From a virus (lineage: Duplodnaviria > Heunggongvirae > Uroviricota > Caudoviricetes), in IMG/VR virus record IMGVR_UViG_2529293172_000014: 12,342 bases of DNA. One strand, given 5' to 3'. The translations under genes and the position numbers were made by a program. The first letter of the stretch is position 1; each line of letters opens with the position of its first letter. Below the pieces are notes generated by a model. The model was not told the origin of the DNA. It worked only from the letters and a program-made list of their open reading frames with translations, and did no database searches. Below, piece after piece: positions 581 through 12,342 of the stretch.

Positions 581-1153
581 ATGCAAATTGGCTACATTCG
601 TGTGTCAACAAATGACCAAAACACAGATTTACAAAGAAATGCACTGAACTGCGCAGGATGTGAACTGATTTTTGAAGATAAAATAAGCGGAACAAAGTCA
701 GCCAGACCAGGCTTGAAAAAGCTGCTCAGAACGTTATCAGAAGGAGATACGCTGGTTGTCTGGAAGCTGGATAGGCTTGGCAGAAGTATGAAACACCTTA
801 TCACGCTTATAGAGGAGTTGCGGGAAAAAGGTGTTAATTTCCGTAGTCTGACAGACAGTATTGACACATCAACACCCATGGGGCGTTTCTTTTTTCATGT
901 CATGGGTGCTTTAGCAGAAATGGAACGTGAATTAATTGTTGAGAGAACACTGGCCGGACTGGCAGCTGCACGCGAACAGGGACGCATTGGCGGACGTCGC
1001 CCGAAGTTGACAAAAGAACAACATGAGCAAATAGCGAGGTTGATCGAAAATGGCTACAGCAGGAAACAGTTGGCAATTATTTACGATATCGGTGTATCGA
1101 CGATTTATCGTTATCATCCTGTAGAGAAGCGCCAAACTCAATCTGAGCTGTAA
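581..1153 (+). CDS. cin: Serine DNA invertase, Cin/Gin/Hin/Pin/Min family
   Basis: MQIGYIRVSTNDQNTDLQRNAL... with the catalytic Ser in GYIRVST, conserved VVWKLDRLGRS and MGRFFFHVMGALAEMERELI blocks, and a C-terminal HTH (GYSRKQLAIIYDIGVSTIYRY). ATG at 581 is preceded by AAAGAGG; the TTG at 572 in the ORF track is a less likely start. Symbol cin is chosen from the P1-like context; the gene could equally be a Min-type allele. Confidence 0.9.
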   Translation: MQIGYIRVSTNDQNTDLQRNALNCAGCELIFEDKISGTKSARPGLKKLLRTLSEGDTLVVWKLDRLGRSMKHLITLIEELREKGVNFRSLTDSIDTSTPMGRFFFHVMGALAEMERELIVERTLAGLAAAREQGRIGGRRPKLTKEQHEQIARLIENGYSRKQLAIIYDIGVSTIYRYHPVEKRQTQSEL

Positions 1154-1588
1154 TTCTAATGCCGCGTCGGTGTAATTTATCTTGATAGAATAGGTACATT
1201 TATCGCGCGGCACATCAATTCGATGTATCTAGCGCCTGCTGACCGCTAATGAAAACTGTTCTCGAAATGTTGTCCCTAGTCCGAGACTAGGGTATCACCT
1301 CTGGAAAGCATACGCAGAACCTTTTTTAACCCAGGGTGCCCAGCCTTTTTGCTGCTCGCCTTATTCGCAAAAATTAGCTCACATCCTGCGCTTTCAAGTG
1401 CTTTTCACTGCATAGCTGTGTTTTGTTCATTTGTCTATATGCGTACATAGCCTATTAGCATATTTTCTGCCCACTATCGTTATTTATTGCAAGCTACAGG
1501 TTTTAATTAACAAAACCAGTGTGTGTGGAAATCACAAAGTGCATACCGTTCTCAAATGTTGTTCAACTTACTGTTGTATAGGTAAAAA

Positions 1589-1852
1589 ATGACATTTTAT
1601 GTACATATCGTGATGTTATCCCTTCTTGGTGGGGTGTATTCGTATTTGAGTGGGCTATGTGAAAACCGTTACGAGTCTTCATGCAAGAAATTGCTGGCCG
1701 AATGTATTTCCGCCGTACTTGCTGGCTTTATTGGCATGTATCTCGCGGAATATAAGGACATGAATGAAAGCCTTCAGAGCTGCATGGTTCTTATTTTCAG
1801 CGCCAATAGCAGGCTTATTATTGAAGGTTCCAAAAGTCGGTTGAATAGGTAA
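1589..1852 (+). CDS. Hypothetical small membrane protein (two hydrophobic segments)
   Basis: 87-aa ORF with hydrophobic stretches VHIVMLSLLGGVYSYLSGL and ISAVLAGFIGMYLA. No convincing Shine-Dalgarno sequence; lies in an AT-rich intergenic region ahead of the holin gene. Could be a lysis-associated membrane peptide or a spurious ORF. Confidence 0.3.
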   Translation: MTFYVHIVMLSLLGGVYSYLSGLCENRYESSCKKLLAECISAVLAGFIGMYLAEYKDMNESLQSCMVLIFSANSRLIIEGSKSRLNR

Positions 1853-1900
1853 GTCTCTTATGCAACATAACCGGTTGAGAAGTTACTTTGCATACCATTA

Positions 1901-1920
1901 CCTCCTGACAACGTAGGAGG
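1901..1920 (+). promoter_or_regulatory. Hairpin that can sequester the Shine-Dalgarno sequence of the holin gene
   Basis: CCTCCT (1901-1906), 8-nt loop GACAACGT, AGGAGG (1915-1920). The 3' arm is the AGGAGG ribosome-binding site 6 nt upstream of the GTG start at 1927. Confidence 0.35.
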
Positions 1921-1926
1921 GAACTT

Positions 1927-2256
1927 GTGCTTGACACACAGGAATTAGCTCCAGTTGCTATTGCGCTCCTGCTTTCAGTAATTGGTGGGATAGGCACGTT
2001 CCTGATGGATGTCCGAGACGGTCGCCAGTCTGGCAATTTGTTGGGATTGGTTACGGAGATCTTTGTTGCAGTGACAGCTGGCGCGGTGGCGTACCTATTG
2101 GGGCAACACGAGGGCTGGGAGTTATCAATTACGTACTTAATGGTAACGATAGCCAGCAATAACGGTCATGAGGTGATTTCAGGGATGAAACGAGTGAATA
2201 TCGATAGCATTCTGAATGTTCTTACAAGTTTGGTGAAAAAGGGAGGCGGGAAATGA
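1927..2256 (+). CDS. lydA: Holin-like small membrane protein (LydA-like)
   Basis: 109 aa, GTG start with a strong AGGAGG RBS. Hydrophobic segments LAPVAIALLLSVIGGIGTFL and LLGLVTEIFVAVTAGAVAYLLG, charged C-terminus KKGGGK. Position at the head of the dar operon matches recalled P1 lydA. Not alignment-verified. Confidence 0.6.
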   Translation: MLDTQELAPVAIALLLSVIGGIGTFLMDVRDGRQSGNLLGLVTEIFVAVTAGAVAYLLGQHEGWELSITYLMVTIASNNGHEVISGMKRVNIDSILNVLTSLVKKGGGK

Positions 2257-2696
2257 TTGGCTGGGGTGTATGCGTTCTTGCGTTAGCCTTAGCCGATCGC
2301 TATTTGCTAAAACGCAAGGACATCACGCATTTAGAACTTGGTGATGTGGAAATTAAACCGGGTTTCATCCGGGTGCCGTTCAAATACCGGTCTAAATTCC
2401 CGTTTTTGCGCGGCGCAACGGTCAGATATTGGATCCGCGATGTTCAGAAGCCAACGACAGTGATTGAAGGCGAACAACGTTGTCTGACGTCGGCTGAACA
2501 GGGCGAAAACAGTGAATGGTTGTACATACCCACTGAATATATGGGTAAAGGAGAACGGCTGTGGCATTTCAACGTCATGGTTACGCATGGCGACTCGTTC
2601 ATTAACCCGTTGTATCGGATTTTCCCTGTTACTCAGCAAATCCGCAGAAGTTACGTAATAAATCTCGCACAGGATGTGTCAGATGACGAAAAATAA
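2253..2696 (+). CDS. lydB: Antiholin-like protein (LydB-like), N-terminal hydrophobic anchor
   Basis: 147 aa; ATGA start/stop overlap with the preceding gene, RBS AGGGAGG. N-terminal MIGWGVCVLALALA segment then a soluble domain. Assignment by position and size relative to recalled P1 lydB. Confidence 0.5.
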   Translation: MIGWGVCVLALALADRYLLKRKDITHLELGDVEIKPGFIRVPFKYRSKFPFLRGATVRYWIRDVQKPTTVIEGEQRCLTSAEQGENSEWLYIPTEYMGKGERLWHFNVMVTHGDSFINPLYRIFPVTQQIRRSYVINLAQDVSDDEK

Positions 2697-3285
2697 GTAT
2701 GCAACGGTCGATTTTGACCAGGTTAATGAAAAGGGGCTGAAATCCCTTATCGCGGCGATCAATAAAACCGGTGTTACGGTAATTGAGGTTGACTCCAGCA
2801 ACCGCGCAACAACGAAAGATGGCGTTAAAGTTAAAACCGCAAAGCTGGTTCTTAACGACGGACAAATTCTTGCCATACAGGTAAACGATACTGGCGATAT
2901 ATCGTCTGTGAGGCTGAATGGAAAAGCTATTCCTAACGCTCAGTCGCCGGATATCAAGACGCTTGGTACCGTCATGGGGCAAGCGGCCCGCAAAAACTCC
3001 GCAAAATTCCAGAAATCACTGATCGCCAAAGCGAAACGTGTTGCCAATCCGGTAGACAAGAAACCGGCAGTAAAATCCAACTTTCAGCGCCTGCAAGAGG
3101 CAAAACAGCGGAATGCTCAGGTGGTTGCCGCTTATAAATCAGCGCAGAACTCGGTGTCTTTCAATCAACAGCAGATCACTGATTTGCGGGCGAAGCTGGA
3201 TAAGGAGACAGGCCGACTCAATAACGAAAAGGCCCGAAATGGCGAACTCAAACGCCGTCTTAAGCAACTGAAAGCAGGAAATTAA
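2683..3285 (+). CDS. hdf: Hdf-like head-morphogenesis protein of the Dar system (paralogous to the DarA N-terminal region)
   Basis: Start chosen at the second ATG (2683, MTKNKYATV), which has AGGA 8 nt upstream; the 2674 ATG has no spacing for an RBS. Shares LNDGQILAIQV / KNSAKFQ blocks with the downstream DarA-like protein (LSDGQTISILF / KNSAKFQ). C-terminal K/R-rich coiled-coil-like tail. Confidence 0.55.
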   Translation: MTKNKYATVDFDQVNEKGLKSLIAAINKTGVTVIEVDSSNRATTKDGVKVKTAKLVLNDGQILAIQVNDTGDISSVRLNGKAIPNAQSPDIKTLGTVMGQAARKNSAKFQKSLIAKAKRVANPVDKKPAVKSNFQRLQEAKQRNAQVVAAYKSAQNSVSFNQQQITDLRAKLDKETGRLNNEKARNGELKRRLKQLKAGN

Positions 3286-3286
3286 C

Positions 3287-5206
3287 ATGGAACAGTTCAA
3301 TATCAATAAAGGGGTGACGATCAAGCCTGGGCTTGACGTGCTTCCCCCGCCAGTGACTGATGATGAATATCGCGCATTAATGGCCGGTGAGGACCGCTAT
3401 CTGATGACGGAATCCAACACCCTGGAGGAAATCGAGGCTACGTTCTTCTATGACACGCCGATCCACTGGTGTGCTACGGATTTACTGGAGGCGATTAGTT
3501 CTACTCGTTTGCAGTTACACCGGACCATGCAGGCATTTGTCCGGGCATTGAACCAGAAGCTGAATGGTACCGGAATCTCTGCGGGGAGTGATAAAACGGG
3601 GGATGTGGCCCAGAGCGGCGCGCGCGCGATCGGCGGTGCTGAAATTGGCCGGGCACGTAACGTTAACGGGCTGCCGGTCCTGCCAGCCATTATTCCGCTC
3701 AGTGATGGTCAGACTATCAGCATTCTGTTTCATAGCCCGACAGCGGAAAACCGGATCACCAATAGCGATACGCTGGTTGCTTTCCAGTTCTTACTGAATA
3801 AAAAAGACGTTACTCACACCGTTGCTCCGATGAGTGGACGTGATATGACGCTGGCGCAGGTCACCATGAAACTTGCCAACCTTGCAGAGAAAAACTCGGC
3901 AAAATTTCAGCGTGCGCAGAAGAAGAAAAAAGCCCTTGTTGATGAAATAACCCAACTACAGGCTGACAGTGACCAGAAAGAGGATGCCATGAGCGACCTC
4001 GTGGATCAGGTGGCAGCGGTAGAAGGGCAGAAGGTAGATCTGGAGCAGAAAATTAACGCTGTTGCATCGGAAGCGGATTCTCTTTATGAAGAGAATGAGC
4101 GTTTGCAGACGGAGATTGATCAGCTCAATCGCACTGGTGGGCGCGATACCATTGCTCCTGCGGGGATGACTGGTGGACACTCTCGCGCGATGACGGATCG
4201 CCTTGCCAGTATCAAAAATCGTATGCATATGAACGGGGAAGTGACGCTCAGTAATGGTGCATCAATGAAGCAATTCATTGAGGACGGCGAAGGGTATATC
4301 CAGTTAACCGATTCGGATGGCAGCGTGTACATGATCAAGGCTAAATCCATACAGGGTGTGGACATGGCAGATGCGATCGGCAAGCTGTTTAAAGCCTATA
4401 AAGCGGGTAATGTATCGGAATACCTGGTCCAACCAGAAGAACATAAACCGGAAAACGTCGAACCTGAACCAGCGGAGGATACCGGTAGCTCTTCGCCTGA
4501 ACCAGAAGTCTCTGTAGGTGCATATCGATATGCCCTGCAAATGCGTCCGGCGGCCCCTGGCGCAATACCTGAAGGTAACAAAGCAATTCTGCCGCGCCCT
4601 GATGAAGGTGACCCGTATTATGAATATGCACGCTACGGCATTGCTACTTACGATACCCCGCTTTCTGATCAGCAAATGAGTGAGTACGACCTGAAGTTAT
4701 TGCCTCGCGAGGATTCTTTCGACTTCCTGGCGAAGACACTTACTAATGGTCCGTTTGGCAAATATGCACAAAAAGCTCTGGAGCTGGCCACCAGCTCACC
4801 AGACGAGTTCCGCGTAATGCTGAAAACTCAGTTTCAAAAAACTTTCCCCAATATTGCGTTTCCGGGGGGCGCTGGCACCGAGAAAATGGTGCAGAGCATG
4901 ATCAATGCATTGCAGGCCGAAGTCGGTGAGATTACTCAGCCAGAACCTGCCCCGGCACAGCCTGATGAAACGGTTAGCGAAGCAGATGCAGAGGCTAATA
5001 AAGCCATTGAATATCTCAATAACGTGATGGATATGCAAAGCACTGACATGGCGGAGATCCGTAACGCCCGGGGTAATGTCCGGGAAGCGATTGCAGCCCT
5101 TCAGGCTGCCGGGCGTTTTGAGGAAAACGAAGAGCTGGTTAATGGCGCTGCTCGCCACTTGGCTGATCTGCTGGTAGCAATCCAGAAAGCGGGGGTAGCG
5201 GCATGA
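3287..5206 (+). CDS. darA: DarA-like internal head / antirestriction protein
   Basis: 639 aa; starts 1 nt after the hdf stop with an AGGAA RBS. Central coiled-coil-like region (LVDEITQLQADSDQKED...ENERLQTEIDQL) and an acidic Pro/Glu-rich linker (PEEHKPENVEPEPAEDTGSSSPEPE). Size and operon position match recalled P1 DarA. Confidence 0.65.
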   Translation: MEQFNINKGVTIKPGLDVLPPPVTDDEYRALMAGEDRYLMTESNTLEEIEATFFYDTPIHWCATDLLEAISSTRLQLHRTMQAFVRALNQKLNGTGISAGSDKTGDVAQSGARAIGGAEIGRARNVNGLPVLPAIIPLSDGQTISILFHSPTAENRITNSDTLVAFQFLLNKKDVTHTVAPMSGRDMTLAQVTMKLANLAEKNSAKFQRAQKKKKALVDEITQLQADSDQKEDAMSDLVDQVAAVEGQKVDLEQKINAVASEADSLYEENERLQTEIDQLNRTGGRDTIAPAGMTGGHSRAMTDRLASIKNRMHMNGEVTLSNGASMKQFIEDGEGYIQLTDSDGSVYMIKAKSIQGVDMADAIGKLFKAYKAGNVSEYLVQPEEHKPENVEPEPAEDTGSSSPEPEVSVGAYRYALQMRPAAPGAIPEGNKAILPRPDEGDPYYEYARYGIATYDTPLSDQQMSEYDLKLLPREDSFDFLAKTLTNGPFGKYAQKALELATSSPDEFRVMLKTQFQKTFPNIAFPGGAGTEKMVQSMINALQAEVGEITQPEPAPAQPDETVSEADAEANKAIEYLNNVMDMQSTDMAEIRNARGNVREAIAALQAAGRFEENEELVNGAARHLADLLVAIQKAGVAA

Positions 5207-5568
5207 CACTATCAGCTATTGAGTTAATGGATCTCAGCGATAAGTTGGATGCTTTGATGTCCAAAGCGGCTACCGCGAGTGGCATGGAGTTGCTGGATAT
5301 CAGCGATGAAATTGACCAGATCATGCAACAGATGGGGTACGGTGTGTCCGGTGGCAGTAGTGGCGAGGAAAAACAACCTTCGGTACATGATGGTGTGCCA
5401 AAACTGGTTGCTGATTTCCTGGCTGATAAATTCGTCGATCAGAGCACCGATGCATTTATCGGTACCTTGCAGGATTTGAGTCAATATGTTGGCACATACA
5501 TCGACCTGGACCAGGTTAAACAGCACACGGCGGCATGGATAGCCGCCAACATTAAAGAGGCAGCATAA
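5203..5568 (+). CDS. ddrA: DdrA-like small Dar-operon protein
   Basis: 121 aa; ATGA overlap with darA. Contains an internal tandem repeat IELMDLSDKLDALM / MELLDISDEIDQIM. Confidence 0.55.
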   Translation: MTLSAIELMDLSDKLDALMSKAATASGMELLDISDEIDQIMQQMGYGVSGGSSGEEKQPSVHDGVPKLVADFLADKFVDQSTDAFIGTLQDLSQYVGTYIDLDQVKQHTAAWIAANIKEAA

Positions 5569-5580
5569 GGCGTAACAGGG

Positions 5581-8568
5581 ATGAGCTTAAGCGATCAGGT
5601 GGTAATGGCCACCAGCATAGAAACGCTGATCGAGCTGCTAAAGAACCTGCCCGGTTATGGGCGGGTTTCGTATGTGGTGACAGCGAAGGGAGACGAGGTA
5701 AAAACAGCGTTTGATATCGTCGATGCCTCAGCTCTTTTGGTATCCAATACTCTGGATGGGAAAATTAATCCTGACTATCCCCAGGAACTTCAGCCGCGCG
5801 ACCGGACCCGCGCATCCAGCCTTCTTCAGGTTAACCAGATATCCAAAGATTTGCGGCCTGCTCAGCTTACTGATTCCGGTTTATCCAGCCATGGTGCGCC
5901 GATAATTGGTGAGGACAATGCCGTTGAGTCAGGTAATGGACGGACCATGGGGATCATCAAAGCCTATCAGGACGGCAATGCGGATCGGTATCGTGAGTAC
6001 CTGATTGATCATGCGACCGAATTCGGCATACGACCTGAAAAGGTTGAATCAATGACGGCTCCGGTACTGGTGCGCCGCCGGTTAACCAAGGTTGACCGCG
6101 TTCAGTTTGCCAAGGACTCAAATATTTCTGATCTTCAGGAAATGGCAGCCAGTGAAAAGGCTTTTGTTGATGCCGACAGCATAACACCGGCGATGATGGC
6201 GCTTTTTAACCCGTCAGAAAGCGGAGATCTGCTTAGCCGCAGTAATGACGCGTTTATTCGCGGATTTATGACGCAAGTTGGTGCCACACAGGCGGCTGGC
6301 CTTGTAACTGAAGATGGGCGACCAACACGGCAACTTGTAGACCGTATACAAAACGCGATCTTTGCCAAGGCATATAAGGATGCGCGCCTGGTAAGGATGG
6401 TTGCAGAAGAACCTGATCCGGACATGCGTAATGTTCTGACGGCGCTTAATGCGGCAGCCAATGATTTTGTCCAGATGCAGGCTTTATCAGGAGAAGCGCA
6501 CAAGCAGGCTGTGACAACTATCGTTGATGGTATTGAAACAGCGGATAGCCTCGATAAAAAGGCGCTGGCGGCATTGAAAGATGCGGTAGACCTGGTAAGG
6601 CAATCGAAGGAGTCAGGCCAACATATTAACGATGTTATTGCTCAGGGGGATATGTTCAGCGAAACGGCCCCGGAAGTGAAAGCACTCGCGTTGTTCATCG
6701 TCGCGAATAACCGTAGCGCGAAGCGTATGGCCTCCGCCTTTAAGTTGATGGCTCAACGTATCAATGATGAGTTACAGCACCAGGGCCAGGCGCTGGGGGA
6801 TATGTTTGGCGGTGGTGATGTGTCGTTACAGGATATCCTTCGCCAGGTGTCTCAGGAACTGGAAAACGAAGGCATGCAAGGGATATCCGGCGGTCTTTTC
6901 GAGTCCGTTTCCGGCGGTAGTTACAATGGTGTTGCTCCATATACCAGTTTGCTATTACATCGGGCATCCGGCATCAAAGACATTATTCATCTGATCAGGC
7001 TGCTTTCCCGTACAGATCCCCAGGATGAACAGCTTGTACAAGTGCTTGCGCATTTTGTTCGAATGCCTGTTGCCGACGTGAAAAAATGGTGCCGATTATT
7101 CGGTATCAGCAATTCGTTACTTCGCGGCTTGTTAAATCACGCATCCTCCCTTGGGCGCGATGGCTTTGACGAGATAGCGCAGGCGATAAAAAACGGAGAT
7201 ATGCCACCAGCTATTGACTGGTTTTCCATTCGCCCAACCAGGGTGAAAGCATTCCTTAGCGCGGCGCATTCGGCATCACCATTGGCAGAAATGGTTCAGA
7301 GGTTGTCGCTCATATTCACAGACCATACCGCGTTGGGTGATCTGACTCTGGACGAGATGAAAGAAGCCTCCATTCAGTGGGCCGATCAACAAAATGAGGT
7401 TAACTCTGACTTCTTGCCAGCATTCAGGAAGGCCGTTAGTAAAGCTGATGATGCCCGTGGAATTCTGAGGGCATTTAAGGCATTGCAAAGTCAGGTTAAT
7501 AAACATGTCGGTGATATCGATGGGGTAACGGCGGAAGGCAGGGATATCCTTAAAGAGCACGGCATAACGCCAGAGTTTATTGATGAGATCAGGACTGATA
7601 TGCAGCGTGAGGTCGTATCGTCCCTGCAAATCGTAGCCAGAGCGTTGGCGGATGCTAATCCGAAGAGTGCGGCCATTGTTAACCGTGTTATTGGTGATAT
7701 TGAAGCATCGGAGGGCATGGGGGCGCTGAAACTCTTCCTTTCGCGAGCGTTTAATCCTAACGGCAATATTCTCCCCGGCATTATTGGTGAGGCTAAAAAG
7801 TATGTCAGCGAAGAAGAACTTGAGCATCTTGACCAACTACTTAAGCGATTCTCATATAACCCGCAGACACGCTGGCAAATGAATCAGCAAAGTATGGGTT
7901 CGGTCCACGAGAAAGTGTTATCTGCCATGAACAGTGCGATCGCCAACTCATCCGTATCTGAAGAAAAAGCTCTTGAGTGGGCCGACTCTTTTATCACGGA
8001 AGAAGTGGAAGAAGCCCGCGCTGGACAGAATGGTGGGATAGACCTGCGCAAGGAACTTGCTGATATTTATCGCCTGACCGGCGGTAAAATTTCGACCTTA
8101 TCAAAGGTGGTTCACCACCAGGGAAGGGCATATGCAAATATTAATGGTGTTGTTGCTGTCAATTTGAACGATGAAAATGCAAGTGCACTGTGGCACGAGC
8201 TGGGTCATCATCTTGAGTACAGTAACCTTGGTTTGTTAGAGAAAGCCCGGTCATTCCTGAAGGCCAATGTTGAAGGGGATAAGCCATCTTTCGTTAATAT
8301 CGGTGGGCGTGGCAAGCCTGAATGGTGCTTCAGATCTCGATTGAGTAATATTTATATGGCGAAGGTATACCCGCCAGCCTCAGTAAGTAACACCGGGAAA
8401 ATTCGGCAGAAATCACCGACTATTTCCAAAACGTCAGCAACGGAAGTATTCTCTATGGCTCTTCAGTTGTATCATGACAAAGAGGCCGCTGCCGCATCAC
8501 TGATGAATGGTGACGGATTGCTGGAACTGTTATTAGGTGTGGCAAAGGAGCTAAATAATGCAGATTAA
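5581..8568 (+). CDS. ddrB: DdrB-like large Dar-operon protein; carries an HEXXH motif near the C-terminus
   Basis: 995 aa, uninterrupted ORF in operon with the preceding genes. WHELGHHLEYS at codons 871-877 (nt 8191-8211). Size and position match recalled P1 DdrB. Confidence 0.6.
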   Translation: MSLSDQVVMATSIETLIELLKNLPGYGRVSYVVTAKGDEVKTAFDIVDASALLVSNTLDGKINPDYPQELQPRDRTRASSLLQVNQISKDLRPAQLTDSGLSSHGAPIIGEDNAVESGNGRTMGIIKAYQDGNADRYREYLIDHATEFGIRPEKVESMTAPVLVRRRLTKVDRVQFAKDSNISDLQEMAASEKAFVDADSITPAMMALFNPSESGDLLSRSNDAFIRGFMTQVGATQAAGLVTEDGRPTRQLVDRIQNAIFAKAYKDARLVRMVAEEPDPDMRNVLTALNAAANDFVQMQALSGEAHKQAVTTIVDGIETADSLDKKALAALKDAVDLVRQSKESGQHINDVIAQGDMFSETAPEVKALALFIVANNRSAKRMASAFKLMAQRINDELQHQGQALGDMFGGGDVSLQDILRQVSQELENEGMQGISGGLFESVSGGSYNGVAPYTSLLLHRASGIKDIIHLIRLLSRTDPQDEQLVQVLAHFVRMPVADVKKWCRLFGISNSLLRGLLNHASSLGRDGFDEIAQAIKNGDMPPAIDWFSIRPTRVKAFLSAAHSASPLAEMVQRLSLIFTDHTALGDLTLDEMKEASIQWADQQNEVNSDFLPAFRKAVSKADDARGILRAFKALQSQVNKHVGDIDGVTAEGRDILKEHGITPEFIDEIRTDMQREVVSSLQIVARALADANPKSAAIVNRVIGDIEASEGMGALKLFLSRAFNPNGNILPGIIGEAKKYVSEEELEHLDQLLKRFSYNPQTRWQMNQQSMGSVHEKVLSAMNSAIANSSVSEEKALEWADSFITEEVEEARAGQNGGIDLRKELADIYRLTGGKISTLSKVVHHQGRAYANINGVVAVNLNDENASALWHELGHHLEYSNLGLLEKARSFLKANVEGDKPSFVNIGGRGKPEWCFRSRLSNIYMAKVYPPASVSNTGKIRQKSPTISKTSATEVFSMALQLYHDKEAAAASLMNGDGLLELLLGVAKELNNAD

Positions 8569-8869
8569 AATCGCAGCGCCATTAGGCGGAGATGCCATTA
8601 TCGAATTTGATGATAATGAAGAAGTTTCCGGGCGTTTAAGCATTATCTCCGGTGACATTACCGAGGACATGATCGCTGAAGCCATAGCTGGGGCAAATCC
8701 CAATAGCTATATGGGATTCGTTAACACCCTTGATGCTCCCGCAAGTGATGTTCTCCGAACGCTGCATCTTTACGCTGGCTGGTTTGTTGATTGGCCAGCA
8801 GTAGATGGTGGCGATGAGGACGACGACGACGATGATTTTGGTGATCATGTAGACCAGATCGTATATTGA
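8558..8869 (+). CDS. Small highly acidic protein with a poly-Asp tract
   Basis: 103 aa; AAGGAG RBS 7 nt upstream of the ATG; overlaps the ddrB stop by 11 nt (translational coupling). Roughly 24 Asp/Glu against 3 Lys/Arg; DEDDDDDD tract encoded by GATGAG(GAC)4GATGAT at 8813-8836. Confidence 0.55.
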   Translation: MQIKIAAPLGGDAIIEFDDNEEVSGRLSIISGDITEDMIAEAIAGANPNSYMGFVNTLDAPASDVLRTLHLYAGWFVDWPAVDGGDEDDDDDDFGDHVDQIVY

Positions 8870-8871
8870 AG

Positions 8872-8897
8872 AAATCCCGCCAATTGGCGGGATTTTT
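8872..8897. terminator. Rho-independent, probably bidirectional, terminator between convergent operons
   Basis: Perfect 10-bp stem AAATCCCGCC (8872-8881), loop AATT, GGCGGGATTT (8886-8895), followed by TT on the plus strand. Lies exactly between the stop of 8558..8869 (+) and the stop of 8901..9995 (-). Confidence 0.7.
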
Positions 8898-8900
8898 ACC

Positions 8901-9995
8901 TCACGAGAAACTCTTTTCTGATGTCAGCCAACAGTGCTCGTGCATATCTCTTGGTGGTTTTTCGACAAATGCCTCTTCAGCCACATCCTGCCAGGGGATT
9001 TGTTTAGCCCATTCAGTTATAGCGTTATGGTTTGCCGAGAATAACGGTATTGTATAGGCCTTCAGCCAGTCTAATGTGCTGGAGTTGTGTTTTTGAGCGT
9101 GATGTTTCGCATGGTGTTTGGCGATCACGATCGTAGGCACTACCCATTTACTACCGTCAGTCATTGTGAAGTGCATATTACGGGGAACAGATGACTTTTC
9201 CATCAACTCCCGAATCCCTGGGAATTTCCCCAAGATCAATCGGCGATATTCATCGCTATTGCGCCCACCAAACTCTTTGGCTTTGAATTCAAGATATGCT
9301 TCAGAAACGAGAGGTGAATCCTCTGTGTTTAGAGTTATCGCCGTGAAAAAACCAGCAGGATTGTTTTTACTATGGGCCAACCGGTGATGCGAATCATAAA
9401 AGTACCCTTTCTCGCGTTCCGATGGTTTCGACAGCAACAGCAGGCGCGAGTCATAATTGGTTAAATTGCCAGTTATCACTGCATGAGCGCGATCGCTGAT
9501 TTCCGCCGAGTTAATAACGATGAAAAGATCGTGCGGTCCAGTAAAACCAGCCAGAGACTCTTCGTTATTCAGACAATAGGTTATATAGACGCATCCCCAT
9601 GTTTCACTGATATGCACCAACCCTTTGTCAGGGTGTATTCTGAAATAATTGCCAAGAAAAGTGTGTTTTTGGGTAACTCGCTCCCAATAACGGAACATAT
9701 AGTCAATTATTGTTTTTCGACAATCGTTAATCGCAGGAGAAACAACCACTGTACGGGAACACGAATACAGTATTGTTTGCAGGATGCTAATCACTGCCAC
9801 AATAGAGGTTTCCCCAATACCATGTGGTGTGGTGGCAGTGATTTTGGCTCCGGTGTTCTTTATCGCGTTAATAATTTTTGCTTGATGAGGTGTTAACTCA
9901 ATATCAAGCAACTCTTTTGCTGCCAGTTCCCAATTGTCTTTATACCGTTCTATCAGTGCTAACCAGGCAGATTCATTCTGTATACGATTAATCAC
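8901..9995 (-). CDS. Hypothetical protein (364 aa); degenerate P-loop-like GIGETS segment and a His-rich HAKHHAKHHAQKH motif
   Basis: Long minus-strand ORF; GTG start at 9995 with GAGGTGG RBS; overlaps the upstream gene's stop by 8 nt. No motif I can assign with confidence. The layout (LTPHQ...GIGETS...DLFIVINSAE...ITGN) loosely recalls an ATPase domain, but the Walker lysine is absent. Confidence 0.6.
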   Translation of the reverse strand: MINRIQNESAWLALIERYKDNWELAAKELLDIELTPHQAKIINAIKNTGAKITATTPHGIGETSIVAVISILQTILYSCSRTVVVSPAINDCRKTIIDYMFRYWERVTQKHTFLGNYFRIHPDKGLVHISETWGCVYITYCLNNEESLAGFTGPHDLFIVINSAEISDRAHAVITGNLTNYDSRLLLLSKPSEREKGYFYDSHHRLAHSKNNPAGFFTAITLNTEDSPLVSEAYLEFKAKEFGGRNSDEYRRLILGKFPGIRELMEKSSVPRNMHFTMTDGSKWVVPTIVIAKHHAKHHAQKHNSSTLDWLKAYTIPLFSANHNAITEWAKQIPWQDVAEEAFVEKPPRDMHEHCWLTSEKSFS

Positions 9996-10776
9996 TTTCC
10001 ACCTCTTCCGTGGTGTTTTCTTGCAGTTCTGTTAATGCAGCACGACATAGGTTCCGGGCATTGGCTATAGCCACACTTTTGACTTCATCCGTCATCGTGC
10101 AGGTAATGTACTGATCGAGTTCTTCAGCGCGGATGATGCTTTTGCCAATCAGAAACTGTATTTGCCATAGCAGATCGGCATCCATAATCAGAATTTCTGC
10201 CGGGCCTTCAGGGCCAGCCGGGAAGGAAACATAAGACTGTTTGCCCAGGCCGACAACTCGACAACTTGCTTCAAGAATTGCGCGCTTGAGGTCTGACTTT
10301 ATAACGGAAACAGGTTGATTTTCACCAGTGATTACGCCGTTGACATGGAAAGGCATGTAGCTTGAAATACGCTCTACTTTCCACACGCCAGCAAGCGATC
10401 CTTCATGCAGCACAATGGGGGTAACCGCGAGTTTCATCTCACCATATAACTGCTGGCAGATAGCTGGATTGCTGAATACATCTAAAGGCTCACATTCAAA
10501 CAGCGGCGCAATCTGCATGAGGTCCATCATGGTCATCCCTGGGGTACGAGCAGTAATGAATTTGCGCATACCAGTATCCATTGCGCTCCAGATTGCTACA
10601 CCATGCTTTTTGCTCACTTCTTCAGTAAAGCCAAGGTGGCACATGATGGTTTTTTCGATAGCCAGATCAGAGATAGAAACCTTTTCGCCAGGTACTCCAT
10701 CATTATTGATGGTCACTTCGACACTCTGGCCATTACGTAGGCGGTATTGAATGGTTTTAGTATTTTGTGCTGTCAT
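9988..10776 (-). CDS. Hypothetical protein (about 263 aa from ATG 10776)
   Basis: Long minus-strand ORF, translationally coupled to the downstream 8901..9995 gene. Start placed at MTAQNTK (ATG 10776) because the track's extension to 10896 would overlap the small upstream ORF 10791..10973; starts at 10890/10896 cannot be excluded. No recognisable catalytic motif. Confidence 0.5.
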   Translation of the reverse strand: MTAQNTKTIQYRLRNGQSVEVTINNDGVPGEKVSISDLAIEKTIMCHLGFTEEVSKKHGVAIWSAMDTGMRKFITARTPGMTMMDLMQIAPLFECEPLDVFSNPAICQQLYGEMKLAVTPIVLHEGSLAGVWKVERISSYMPFHVNGVITGENQPVSVIKSDLKRAILEASCRVVGLGKQSYVSFPAGPEGPAEILIMDADLLWQIQFLIGKSIIRAEELDQYITCTMTDEVKSVAIANARNLCRAALTELQENTTEEVESD

Positions 10777-10790
10777 AGTCTTTTCTCTGC

Positions 10791-10973
10791 TTAAAAACTG
10801 ATGTATTGCGTCTTCAGGTGGGTTAGGAATGTTTTCCCACCAGCGAAAGCAATATCTCGTGGTGTTCTGTTCGTTAAAAACGCGTGCCATTGCCAACTTT
10901 GGCGTTTTTTAGCGAGTTCGTGCTTTTGTTGGCGTTTGGACCACCGCTTTTCTTTCAGTCGTTTTTTACTCAT
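10791..10973 (-). CDS. Possible small basic protein (60 aa), tightly packed between ssb and the next gene
   Basis: MSKKRLKEKRWSKRQQKHELAKKRQ...; starts 5 nt after the ssb stop and ends 15 nt before ATG 10776. Weak RBS. Could instead be a non-coding spacer; an 8-bp inverted repeat AAAAACGC...GCGTTTTT (10876-10883 / 10903-10910) lies inside it. Confidence 0.3.
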   Translation of the reverse strand: MSKKRLKEKRWSKRQQKHELAKKRQSWQWHAFLTNRTPRDIAFAGGKTFLTHLKTQYISF

Positions 10974-10978
10974 AAACT

Positions 10979-11467
10979 CTAAAACGGAATATCGTCTTCA
11001 AAGTCCATTGGAGGTTCGTTATTGGCGCTGCTCTGAGGTTTGCCGCCACCGCTGTATTGCTGGTGGTTTTGAGGTTGGTTTGACTGCCCCCAGCCATTTG
11101 AGGACTGTGAATCGTCGCGGCGAGTGCCGATCATTTGCATGGTGCCGCCCTGGCTGACGATAATTTCCGTCGTGTAACGTTCTACACCGGCGTCATCAGT
11201 CCACTTACGGGTTTTAAGTTTCCCTTCGATGTAGACCTGAGAACCTTTTCGTAAATACTCACTCGCAATTTCAGCAAGTTTTCCGAACAAAACGACTTTA
11301 TGCCATTCTGTTTGCTCTTTCTGTTGGCCCGTTTGCTTATCGCGCCATGATTCATTCGTTGCGATGCTGAGTCTTCCGACTGCGCCGCCATTTGGTATAT
11401 ACCTGATCTCCGGGTCTTGCCCCAGGGTACCAATCAGGATGACTTTGTTTACACCGCGTTGTGCCAC
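10979..11467 (-). CDS. ssb: Single-stranded DNA-binding protein
   Basis: [23 protein letters not shown]...[14 protein letters not shown]-fold core, Gly/Gln-rich linker and the C-terminal acidic tail [12 protein letters not shown] start at 11467. Confidence 0.95.
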
Positions 11468-11636
11468 TTTTCTTACCTAATAAAATAAATTAATTAGAGC
11501 AATAATGTATATCTTTGAAACGTGGCTAACAAGTGATTTGCATTATCCTGTGCCTTCTAAAGGGATCGAGTCAGTCGGTATTGGCTGTGAATGAGTGTTT
11601 GTCCTGGAGCGTAAAAAATTCGCTTATGAGGTCTTT
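11468..11636. promoter_or_regulatory. Divergent promoter region between ssb (leftward) and lyz (rightward)
   Basis: 169-bp AT-rich non-coding gap between divergently oriented starts; contains TTGAAA (11515-11520) and CATTAT (11541-11546). No promoter element pinned down with confidence. In P1, lyz is a late gene, so an Lpa-type late promoter is expected here. Confidence 0.3.
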
Positions 11637-12194
11637 ATGAAGGGAAAAACAGCCGCAGGAGGCGGTGCAATTTGCGCTATCGCGGTGATGATTACCATCG
11701 TGATGGGTAATGGCAATGTGCGAACCAACCAGGCGGGGCTTGAGCTGATTGGTAACGCTGAAGGTTGCCGACGTGATCCATACATGTGCCCGGCGGGGGT
11801 ATGGACTGACGGGATCGGTAATACACACGGGGTAACGCCGGGTGTGCGAAAAACCGACCAGCAAATCGCCGCTGATTGGGAAAAGAATATCCTGATCGCT
11901 GAACGCTGTATTAATCAGCACTTCCGGGGCAAAGACATGCCCGATAATGCCTTCAGTGCAATGACAAGCGCGGCATTCAATATGGGATGCAATAGCTTAC
12001 GGACCTACTACAGCAAAGCGCGAGGCATGCGAGTAGAAACGTCCATCCACAAGTGGGCGCAGAAAGGGGAATGGGTGAATATGTGTAACCATCTCCCTGA
12101 TTTCGTGAACAGTAACGGCGTGCCCCTGCGAGGTTTAAAGATTCGCCGTGAAAAAGAACGCCAGCTTTGCCTGACGGGGCTTGTCAATGAATAA
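11637..12194 (+). CDS. lyz: SAR (signal-arrest-release) endolysin, T4-lysozyme-like muramidase (P1 Lyz-type)
   Basis: Start at ATG 11637 (GAGG RBS 6 nt upstream), not the track's 11595. 185 aa beginning MKGKTAAGGGAICAIAVMITIVMGNGN (weakly hydrophobic Gly/Ala-rich SAR segment), then NAEGCRRDPYMCPAGVWTDGIG with Glu42, Cys44, Cys51, Thr57 and Cys13 at the positions I recall for P1 Lyz. Confidence 0.9.
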   Translation: MKGKTAAGGGAICAIAVMITIVMGNGNVRTNQAGLELIGNAEGCRRDPYMCPAGVWTDGIGNTHGVTPGVRKTDQQIAADWEKNILIAERCINQHFRGKDMPDNAFSAMTSAAFNMGCNSLRTYYSKARGMRVETSIHKWAQKGEWVNMCNHLPDFVNSNGVPLRGLKIRREKERQLCLTGLVNE

Positions 12195-12342
12195 ACTCCG
12201 GCAGCTCCGCCGACTTTCGACAATGAAGTTATCGCTGGCGGCGATAGTTTTTGACTCGATTTTCATGGCGGTATATGTGCTCAATGAGACGTGGCCACTG
12301 GAACCGCTATTGTATGCCGGGCTTCGGCTGTGCCTGACATTT
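12187..12342 (+). CDS. 5' part of a membrane-protein gene overlapping the lyz stop (possible lysis accessory or spanin-like); runs off the window
   Basis: ATG at 12187 (inside the lyz terminal codons, ATGA-type coupling) or at 12223 opens a frame encoding MNKLRQLRRLST-MKLSLAAIVFDSIFMAVYVLNETWPLEPLLYAGLRLCLTF, a basic N-terminus followed by a transmembrane-like stretch, with no stop before the window end. Confidence 0.4.
   Translation, partial: MNKLRQLRRLSTMKLSLAAIVFDSIFMAVYVLNETWPLEPLLYAGLRLCLTF

Follow-up and report, generated by a model that had tools for sequence, protein, structure and literature searches.

Four genes almost certainly belonging to the phage P1 Dar operon, carried by a P1-like plasmid prophage in Escherichia coli

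Introduction

In phage P1, the proteins of the Dar (defence against restriction) operon travel with the virion. All four of the proteins considered here, Hdf, DarA, DdrA and DdrB, are present in CsCl-purified P1 particles (LC-MS/MS; PMC9024508). During loading of the procapsid, DarA and Hdf come first and are required for the packaging of all other Dar proteins (PMC12810830). In the mature head, 55 pairs of DarA and Hdf lie on the inner capsid wall at the penton-hexon junctions, with a positively charged face towards the packaged DNA, and cryo-EM of particles in three states (full, partly emptied, empty) showed that DarA-Hdf is lost after ejection (PMC12810830). Protection acts in cis only, on the DNA of the same virion, and is directed at type I and BREX systems (PMC12707154). 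Loss of Dar results in clear restriction sensitivity (PMC12707154; PMC12810830). DdrA is listed as an antagonist of EcoA restriction (PMC9024508 Table 1), and the domain architecture of DdrB has been described and interpreted in PMC5512222. Later P1 papers on the roles of individual Dar proteins are not fully consistent about DdrB.

Here we analyse a stretch of viral DNA of 12,342 nucleotides, hereafter the window. An earlier note on this DNA had proposed that it contains a Dar-type operon, hdf-darA-ddrA-ddrB. Comparison with P1 indicates that these genes are almost certainly a segment of the P1 Dar operon, carried by a P1-like plasmid prophage that is common in E. coli; no feature of the sequence speaks against this. 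The segment is part of an already known and well-studied counter-defence operon, and there is nothing new in it.

Results

Identity and layout of the operon

Each of the four ORFs was aligned by BLASTP with its P1 counterpart, using proteins translated from AF234172. Hdf (203/203 aa), DarA (639/639 aa), DdrA (121/121 aa) and DdrB (995/995 aa) all aligned over their full length, without gaps and at near-identity, which bears out the proposed assignment to the P1 proteins. Because of this near-identity, the functions established in P1 were transferred to the window. The features of the operon are as follows, with the identity to P1 or other basis in brackets.

1880..1898, + strand: LPdar, late promoter of P1 with -22 box and -10, from which the whole operon is driven (P1 annotation and sequence identity)
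1927..2256, + strand: lydA, holin, first gene of the operon (100% amino acid and nucleotide identity to P1 LydA)
2253..2696, + strand: lydB, antiholin, LydA antagonist (98.6% to P1 LydB, 147/147 aa)
2674..3285 (alternative start 2683), + strand: hdf, DarA paralogue, internal head protein (98.5% to P1 Hdf)
3287..5206, + strand: darA, internal head protein, 639 aa (98.0% to P1 DarA)
5203..5568, + strand: ddrA, small virion protein, 121 aa (95.9% to P1 DdrA)
5581..8568, + strand: ddrB, virion protein, 995 aa (98.2% to P1 DdrB)
8558..8869, + strand: hxr, last gene of the operon, 103 aa (97.1% to P1 Hxr)

The order and sizes of the four genes (about 200, 639, 121 and 995 aa) were the same in the ORF list as previously described, with all genes on the + strand. 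The bounds of 2683-8568 that had been given for the operon hold for these four genes, but not for the transcription unit, which is wider and spans about 1880-8869, from LPdar through lydA, lydB, hdf, darA, ddrA and ddrB to hxr. LPdar is annotated in P1, at 2107-2125 of the P1 locus used for the comparison, and across the promoter, starting at 1869, window and P1 have the same sequence. The activity of LPdar in P1 depends on the late activator Lpa.

Tight translational coupling, as suggested before, can be read directly from the junctions, which consist of overlapping or abutting ORFs. The overlap is 4 nt between lydA and lydB, 23 nt between lydB and hdf (14 nt if hdf starts at 2683), 4 nt between darA and ddrA, which share ATGA, and 11 nt between ddrB and hxr. 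The stop of hdf and the ATG of darA are 1 nt apart, and ddrA is separated from ddrB by a gap of 12 nt. Sigma-70-like promoters were depleted within the transcription unit, with two found versus 10.2 expected. Terminator-like hairpins were not above chance (11 found versus 7.9 expected), and neither tRNAs nor, at gathering score, any Rfam family turned up in the window.

Two starts are available for hdf. The first in-frame ATG, at 2674, yields a protein of 203 aa and is used by the P1 record and by PDB entry 9ukm. The second in-frame ATG, at 2683, yields the 200 aa of the earlier note and is used by P7 (odaE), RefSeq/PGAP and the PHROG model. Either start is defensible, because AGGA lies 8 nt before 2683.

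Domains and sequence variation of the operon proteins

All Pfam matches of the operon proteins were over the gathering scores. Hdf matched Pfam DarA_N (E = 1.5e-21) and phrog_1620, 'Hdf-like antirestriction' (E = 4e-80), while DarA matched DarA_N at residues 66-204 (E = 3.8e-42) and DarA_C at residues 411-472. The proposed paralogy of Hdf and DarA is confirmed both by their common DarA_N domain and by a direct BLASTP match of 31% over 90 aa (E = 8e-4). In addition, the two proteins match the chains of PDB 9ukm end to end, Hdf with chain H (E = 9.5e-122) and DarA, over its full length, with chain I. PDB 9vz0, likewise solved in situ, was matched as well. That all four proteins are virion components, as had been claimed, agrees with the detection of their P1 orthologues in purified virions (LC-MS/MS, PMC9024508) and with the position of DarA-Hdf at the inner capsid surface (cryo-EM, PMC12810830). 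The system is also less obscure than the description of its biochemistry as still poorly understood would suggest, since the structure that DarA-Hdf adopts inside the P1 head was solved by cryo-EM in 2026 (PMC12810830; PDB 9ukm, 9vz0).

Compared with P1, darA had a pN/pS of 0.24. Residues 1-69 of DarA, which are missing from the P1 density map, contained a single difference from P1, M10V. In a set of 71 different darA alleles, taken from 80 IMG/VR loci, DarA_N (residues 70-204) was the most constrained part of DarA, with 12 nonsynonymous versus 39 synonymous changes (p = 0.001), and the remainder of the protein was more relaxed.

Ten of the 13 DarA substitutions relative to P1 fell within residues 239-343, in the alpha-helix and penton-binding domains. 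For this interval, which was picked post hoc, we counted 10 nonsynonymous and 4 synonymous differences; the corresponding counts outside it were 4 and 13 (Fisher p = 0.012). An adaptive hotspot at residues 239-343 was rejected, however, as the interval was not distinct across the 71 darA alleles of the 80 IMG/VR loci (p = 0.14).

DdrA matched phrog_1855, 'DdrA-like anti-restriction protein' (E = 1e-57). At its N-terminus, DdrB has a ParB/sulfiredoxin-like domain (Pfam ddrB-ParB, residues 36-167, E = 2e-39), which belongs to a family with a conserved active-site arginine (PMC5512222). Its C-terminus carries an intact zincin-type metallopeptidase motif, HELGH (HEXXH), at residue 872. Hxr matched phrog_2292, a family of unknown function, and is annotated in the P1 record as a possible Xre-like repressor. 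PADLOC, NCBIfam and Pfam searches of DdrA, DdrB, Hxr, orf364 and orf302 gave the ddrB-ParB domain of DdrB as the only match, leaving DdrA without a Pfam family and Hxr without a Pfam, NCBIfam or PADLOC match.

Distribution and variants among related elements

The 5.9-kb operon is 100% identical to that of NZ_CP039843.1, a plasmid of E. coli O55:H7 USDA5905. In total, the operon was present in 489 of the 5,426 complete E. coli genomes (about 9%), and 509 of its 522 places were on plasmids. All operon ORFs were intact across 80 IMG/VR loci, and hdf was intact in all 81 related loci. Most of the RefSeq copies of the operon genes are labelled 'hypothetical protein'.

The ORF list confirmed that darB and ulx are absent from the window. 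Their putative presence in this element was judged from a proxy plasmid, NZ_CP026725.1 (IncY), with which the whole window is collinear at 99.5% identity. In NZ_CP026725.1, darB and ulx (99% to P1) come after lyz-pro-prt, outside the window and about 3 kb from its right end. The DarB protein of this plasmid, a methyltransferase-helicase of 2,255 aa, carries the annotation N-6 DNA methylase.

Two variants of the operon recurred among the related loci, an in-frame deletion in ddrB and a TnpB insertion. The deletion, in 8 of the 81 related loci, covers DdrB residues 13-447; the ParB-like domain is lost, whereas the ORF remains open and the metallopeptidase end is kept. This natural short allele encodes 562 aa (e.g., IMG/VR UViG_2802429224_000004), versus 995 aa for the long allele. 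The TnpB element was inserted exactly at the ddrA/ddrB junction in at least nine other related loci. The window carries neither the TnpB insertion nor the ddrB deletion.

Discussion

If what has been shown in P1 applies to the near-identical genes of the window, the operon would be transcribed late from LPdar, jointly with lydA and lydB, the genes for lysis. Once DarA and Hdf have been loaded, DdrA and DdrB would enter the procapsid together with DarB and Ulx, which are encoded separately. The prohead protease Pro would cut about 70 residues off the N-terminus of DarA, and a pro gene is present in the proxy plasmid NZ_CP026725.1. On infection, the Dar proteins would exit the head with the DNA, and only that DNA would be protected from type I restriction. 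In P1 this protection has two branches, with DarA/DdrA acting against EcoA-type enzymes and DarB/Ulx/DdrB acting against EcoB and EcoK. We infer that the incoming DNA is coated or otherwise acted on, rather than that the restriction enzyme is inhibited globally. DdrB may process itself through its C-terminal metallopeptidase and deliver its ParB-like domain.

An alternative explanation is that protection is enzymatic and does not involve shielding. Modification of the DNA, or an attack on the host system, would then be the work of the injected ParB-like domain of DdrB, whose fold is of the nuclease, NTPase or kinase type, and of the DarB methyltransferase-helicase, and DarA, Hdf and DdrA would serve as packaging adaptors only. 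The ddrB-ParB domain with the active-site arginine of its family, the zincin peptidase motif and the methylase annotation of DarB in the proxy plasmid are all consistent with enzymatic activity. We nevertheless consider this explanation unlikely. Protection in cis only, as found for P1 (PMC12707154), is difficult to reconcile with an enzyme that diffuses freely and puts the host system out of action. Moreover, since 8 of the 81 related loci delete the ParB-like domain and keep the ORF open, this domain is dispensable for persistence of the element. The deletion, together with the TnpB insertions at the ddrA/ddrB junction, could also be read to mean that the N-terminal ParB-like domain of DdrB lies outside the core system and is an effector module that can be detached, but this seems very doubtful to us.

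It is also rather improbable that the module is primarily a device for capsid assembly or stabilisation, in which DarA and Hdf, as accessory scaffold or cement proteins, determine whether heads are T=13 or T=7 and neutralise DNA charge, with antirestriction as a secondary role via the cargo. Several observations on P1 point in this direction: DarA-Hdf is found at every penton-hexon junction by cryo-EM, empty heads without DarA-Hdf rupture more often, and when darA or hdf is deleted, the share of normal heads falls to about 15%, from about 80%, and most heads are small (PMC12810830). The constraint on DarA_N, the hexon-binding part of DarA, across the 80 loci fits a structural role as well. In contrast, hdf, darA, ddrA and ddrB are all non-essential for plaque formation by P1 (PMC10695390), and it is restriction sensitivity that results from their loss (PMC12707154; PMC12810830). 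Because the two roles are not mutually exclusive, the choice between capsid and antirestriction is a matter of emphasis and not of a different identity.

Finally, that the operon is a decaying, non-functional remnant in a cryptic plasmid prophage is scarcely credible: in related elements the operon does show deletions as well as insertions of IS or TnpB, and most of its genes bear 'hypothetical protein' labels in RefSeq, but these labels reflect an annotation gap rather than decay, and the window itself is free of the TnpB insertion and the ddrB deletion, has full-length ORFs with no frameshift or stop and a promoter identical to that of P1, and differs from P1 mainly at synonymous sites.

With the locus read as part of the P1 Dar operon, its practical value lies in annotation, as the RefSeq copies labelled 'hypothetical protein' can now be named with confidence. 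As a discovery it matters little, given that the P1 operon has been studied by genetics in 1987 and 2017, by virion proteomics in 2022 and by in-situ structure determination in 2026. On the question of how injected Dar proteins block type I restriction, the only handle offered by the window is the set of natural DdrB deletion alleles in its relatives. If full-length DdrB targets a defence other than type I (e.g., BREX), the long and short DdrB alleles would provide a ready comparison for finding this target.

Comparison with P1, P7 and T4

P1 (AF234172 / NC_005856) has the same gene order and overlaps as the window and an identical LPdar, with protein identities of 95.9-100% over full-length, ungapped alignments. 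Relative to P1, the Hdf, DarA, DdrA and DdrB proteins of the window have 3, 13, 5 and 18 amino acid substitutions, respectively. The differences from P1 are mostly synonymous, with pN/pS values of 0.10-0.24 that indicate purifying selection. The doubtful antisense ORF iddB of P1 has ATA in the window in place of its ATG.

The flanks of the operon in the window are mosaic. The lydC/cin flank is only about 82% identical to P1, and the window carries a different, inverted invertase. On the 3' side of hxr, P1 has isaB-IS1, whereas the window has an ORF of 364 aa (orf364).

The oda/dar region of P7 (odaE-darA-odaC-'prt'-odaA; AF503408) is the same operon under older names. Its ORF lengths of 200, 639, 121, 995 and 101 aa match those in the window, with odaE starting at the second ATG. 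The interval between the operon and ssb contains the porin gene nmpC in P7, but orf364 and orf302 in the window.

The internal proteins IPI, IPII and IPIII of phage T4 have a strategy in common with Dar, in that a targeting signal takes them into the head, from which they are released along with the DNA to act against restriction by the host (PMC9024508; PMC12810830). A sequence relationship between the T4 internal proteins and Dar was neither found nor expected. IPI* of T4 inhibits a type IV enzyme directly. Dar, in contrast, acts in cis and against type I systems, and it also shapes the capsid.

Identity and extent of the dar operon

Window positions 1285-8867 and 9987-12342 aligned with phage P1 (AF234172) at 96.7% and 96.5%, respectively, and the IncY plasmid NZ_CP026725.1 was collinear with the window at 99.5%. 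These alignments indicate that the whole window is part of a P1-like plasmid prophage. The earlier note had read the interval 2683-8568 as a Dar-type antirestriction operon, hdf-darA-ddrA-ddrB. Annotated P1 genes were translated and compared with the window ORFs, and four consecutive ORFs on the plus strand matched the sizes proposed.

Features of the operon, with protein identity to P1 (full length without gaps, except Hxr)
about 1880: late promoter LPdar, with a -22 box and a -10, ahead of lydA
1927-2256: lydA, preceding the hdf run; LydA, 100%
2253-2696: lydB, preceding hdf with a 23-nt overlap; LydB, 98.6%
2674-3285, plus strand: hdf, 203-aa ORF; Hdf, 98.5%
3287-5206, plus strand: darA, 639-aa ORF; DarA, 98.0%
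5203-5568, plus strand: ddrA, 121-aa ORF; DdrA, 95.9%
5581-8568, plus strand: ddrB, 995-aa ORF; DdrB, 98.2%
8558-8869: hxr, following ddrB with an 11-nt overlap; Hxr, 97.1%, one gap (103 vs 102 aa)

The assignment to the P1 Dar system was borne out by the orthology of the four proteins, by the operon architecture and promoter (the LPdar sequence is identical in the window and P1), and by the domain signatures. The genes are as tightly coupled as had been described: 1 nt separates the hdf stop from the darA ATG, darA and ddrA overlap by 4 nt in a shared ATGA, and the ddrA-ddrB gap is 12 nt. The proposed interval needs to be widened: starting at LPdar (about 1880) and ending with hxr (8869), the functional unit also takes in the lysis genes. 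Inside this unit, sigma-70-like promoter matches were depleted (2 seen versus 10.2 expected), which fits a single long late transcript. The hdf start at 2683 is the second in-frame ATG, with AGGA 8 nt before it. RefSeq, the PHROG model and the record of P7 begin hdf there; in the P1 record and in the PDB entry it begins at 2674.

The genes darB and ulx lie outside the window, as had been noted. Past the position of the window's right end, the proxy plasmid NZ_CP026725.1 carries lyz, pro, prt, a 2,255-aa 'N-6 DNA methylase' with 99% identity to P1 DarB and a 146-aa ORF with 99% identity to P1 Ulx. Via this proxy only, we infer that the source element probably carries darB and ulx.

Domains and function

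The proposed paralogy of Hdf and DarA was confirmed, because DarA_N is present in both; direct BLASTP gave 31% over 90 aa (E 8e-4). DarA_C is present in DarA, a ddrB-ParB domain occupies DdrB residues 36-167, and the HELGH zincin motif is intact at DdrB residue 872. The PHROG families matched are named 'Hdf-like antirestriction' and 'DdrA-like anti-restriction protein', and in PDB 9ukm/9vz0 DarA matched chain I and Hdf matched chain H, both end to end.

The biochemistry of the system had been considered poorly understood, but an in-situ structure has since become available, and the system is better characterised than that. In CsCl-purified P1 virions, LC-MS/MS found Hdf, DarA, DdrA and DdrB among the head proteins (PMC9024508). 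Cryo-EM of P1 located 55 DarA-Hdf pairs on the inner capsid surface at penton-hexon junctions, where they bind the capsid via helical domains and touch DNA with a positively charged face; the pairs are absent from particles after complete DNA ejection, and DarA residues 1-69 are absent from the density, consistent with cleavage by the prohead protease (PMC12810830). With either darA or hdf deleted, the P1 head takes up none of the other Dar proteins, and the share of heads of normal size, about 80% otherwise, falls to about 15% (PMC12810830). Protection acts in cis only, on DNA from the virion that carried the proteins, and its targets are several type I systems as well as BREX (PMC12707154); DNA shielding as the protective step has been inferred in the literature. 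DdrB has been described as a phage 'polyvalent protein': its N-terminal domain is ParB/sulfiredoxin-like, and the metallopeptidase at its C-terminus is proposed to act in its processing (PMC5512222). Published accounts of this protein do not fully agree. None of the four genes is needed for plaques on a permissive host, i.e., they are non-essential (PMC10695390). Given the near-identity of the proteins, the P1 mechanism would carry over to the operon in the window.

Selection and distribution

Relative to P1, pN/pS was 0.10 for hdf, 0.24 for darA, 0.12 for ddrA and 0.15 for ddrB; therefore, all four genes are under purifying selection. All ORFs were intact among the copies of these genes recovered as full-length ungapped matches in 80 IMG/VR loci found by DarA. 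Across 71 distinct darA alleles, DarA_N (residues 70-204) had 12 nonsynonymous changes against 39 synonymous ones (p = 0.001), a robust indication of strong constraint on this domain and weaker constraint in the rest of DarA. Residues 239-343, an interval picked post hoc after data inspection, contain 10 of the 13 DarA differences from P1 (nonsynonymous excess, p = 0.012); as a distinct interval it was rejected across the 71 alleles (p = 0.14).

The 5.9 kb operon segment showed 100.0% identity with the E. coli O55:H7 USDA5905 plasmid NZ_CP039843.1. Of 5,426 complete E. coli genomes, 489 contained the segment; plasmids accounted for 509 of its 522 places. Hence, the element that bears the operon is very common. 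Most RefSeq copies (e.g., NZ_CP026725.1, NZ_CP039843.1) give every one of hdf, darA, ddrA, ddrB and hxr as 'hypothetical protein', and DarA is named in just a few recent records. These labels reflect an annotation gap, although a solved structure exists for these genes.

Variation in and next to ddrB

Two structural variants were seen among 81 related loci. In at least nine, the junction of the ddrA stop and ddrB is the exact site of a 1,335-bp insertion (e.g., locus L052, 6321-7655; insertion point at window 5564/5565), which encodes on the opposite strand a 402-aa TnpB with OrfB_IS605 and Cas12f1-like TNB domains; this insertion is absent from the window at that junction. In eight loci, DdrB residues 13-447 are cleanly deleted in frame (e.g., locus L026, 6795-8483; equivalent to window 5618-6921). 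The resulting 562-aa protein lacks the ParB-like domain and keeps the HELGH peptidase end, with 98% identity in the retained part. The window encodes the full-length form.

An antisense ORF, iddB, is annotated within P1 ddrB. At the corresponding position (6135-6533, minus strand) its ATG is replaced by ATA and the frame is open only from a TTG at 6503 (122 aa), a weak hint that iddB may not be a real gene.

Mosaic flanks

Identity to P1 is about 82% across 1285-1868 (cin remnant and lydC; 67% for the LydC protein) and rises to about 100% exactly at 1869, the start of LPdar. A full-length serine invertase (581-1138, plus strand), 74% identical to P1 Cin and opposite in orientation to P1 cin, adjoins a truncated cin remnant (1285-1461, minus strand; codons 1-59, 83% identical) that spans the P1 position of the Cin recombinational enhancer. 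Together they look like a module-swap scar. The left end (1-520) holds a tail-fibre cassette with a minus-strand ORF at 48-509. Blocks 1-100 and 303-520 have four further copies in the collinear plasmid (84-94% identity; locus L002, 10558-13918), which encodes six short 'phage tail protein' ORFs in a row. This arrangement suggests a multiple-inversion tail-fibre shuffling region, presumably like p15B Min, rather than the simple C segment of P1.

On the other side, the hxr-ssb interval (8868-9986 and 9988-10896) is a variable cargo slot, which holds isaB-IS1-isaA in P1 and the porin gene nmpC in P7.

Features right of hxr
8901-9995, minus strand: orf364, 364 aa, not in P1
9988-10896: orf302, IsaA homologue, 94% identical

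No match to orf364 was found in Pfam, PADLOC or NCBIfam; it matched phrog_5902 (unknown function) and showed weak terminase-large-subunit-like similarity (E 4.5e-9). Because orf364 and the IsaA homologue overlap by 8 nt, a minus-strand operon ssb-isaA-orf364 is suggested.

Comparison with known systems

The dar operon segment is widespread and already known in detail. P7 has the same operon, with genes named odaE, darA, odaC, 'prt' and odaA. The internal proteins of T4 follow a similar strategy of packaging and injection, but are unrelated to the Dar proteins.
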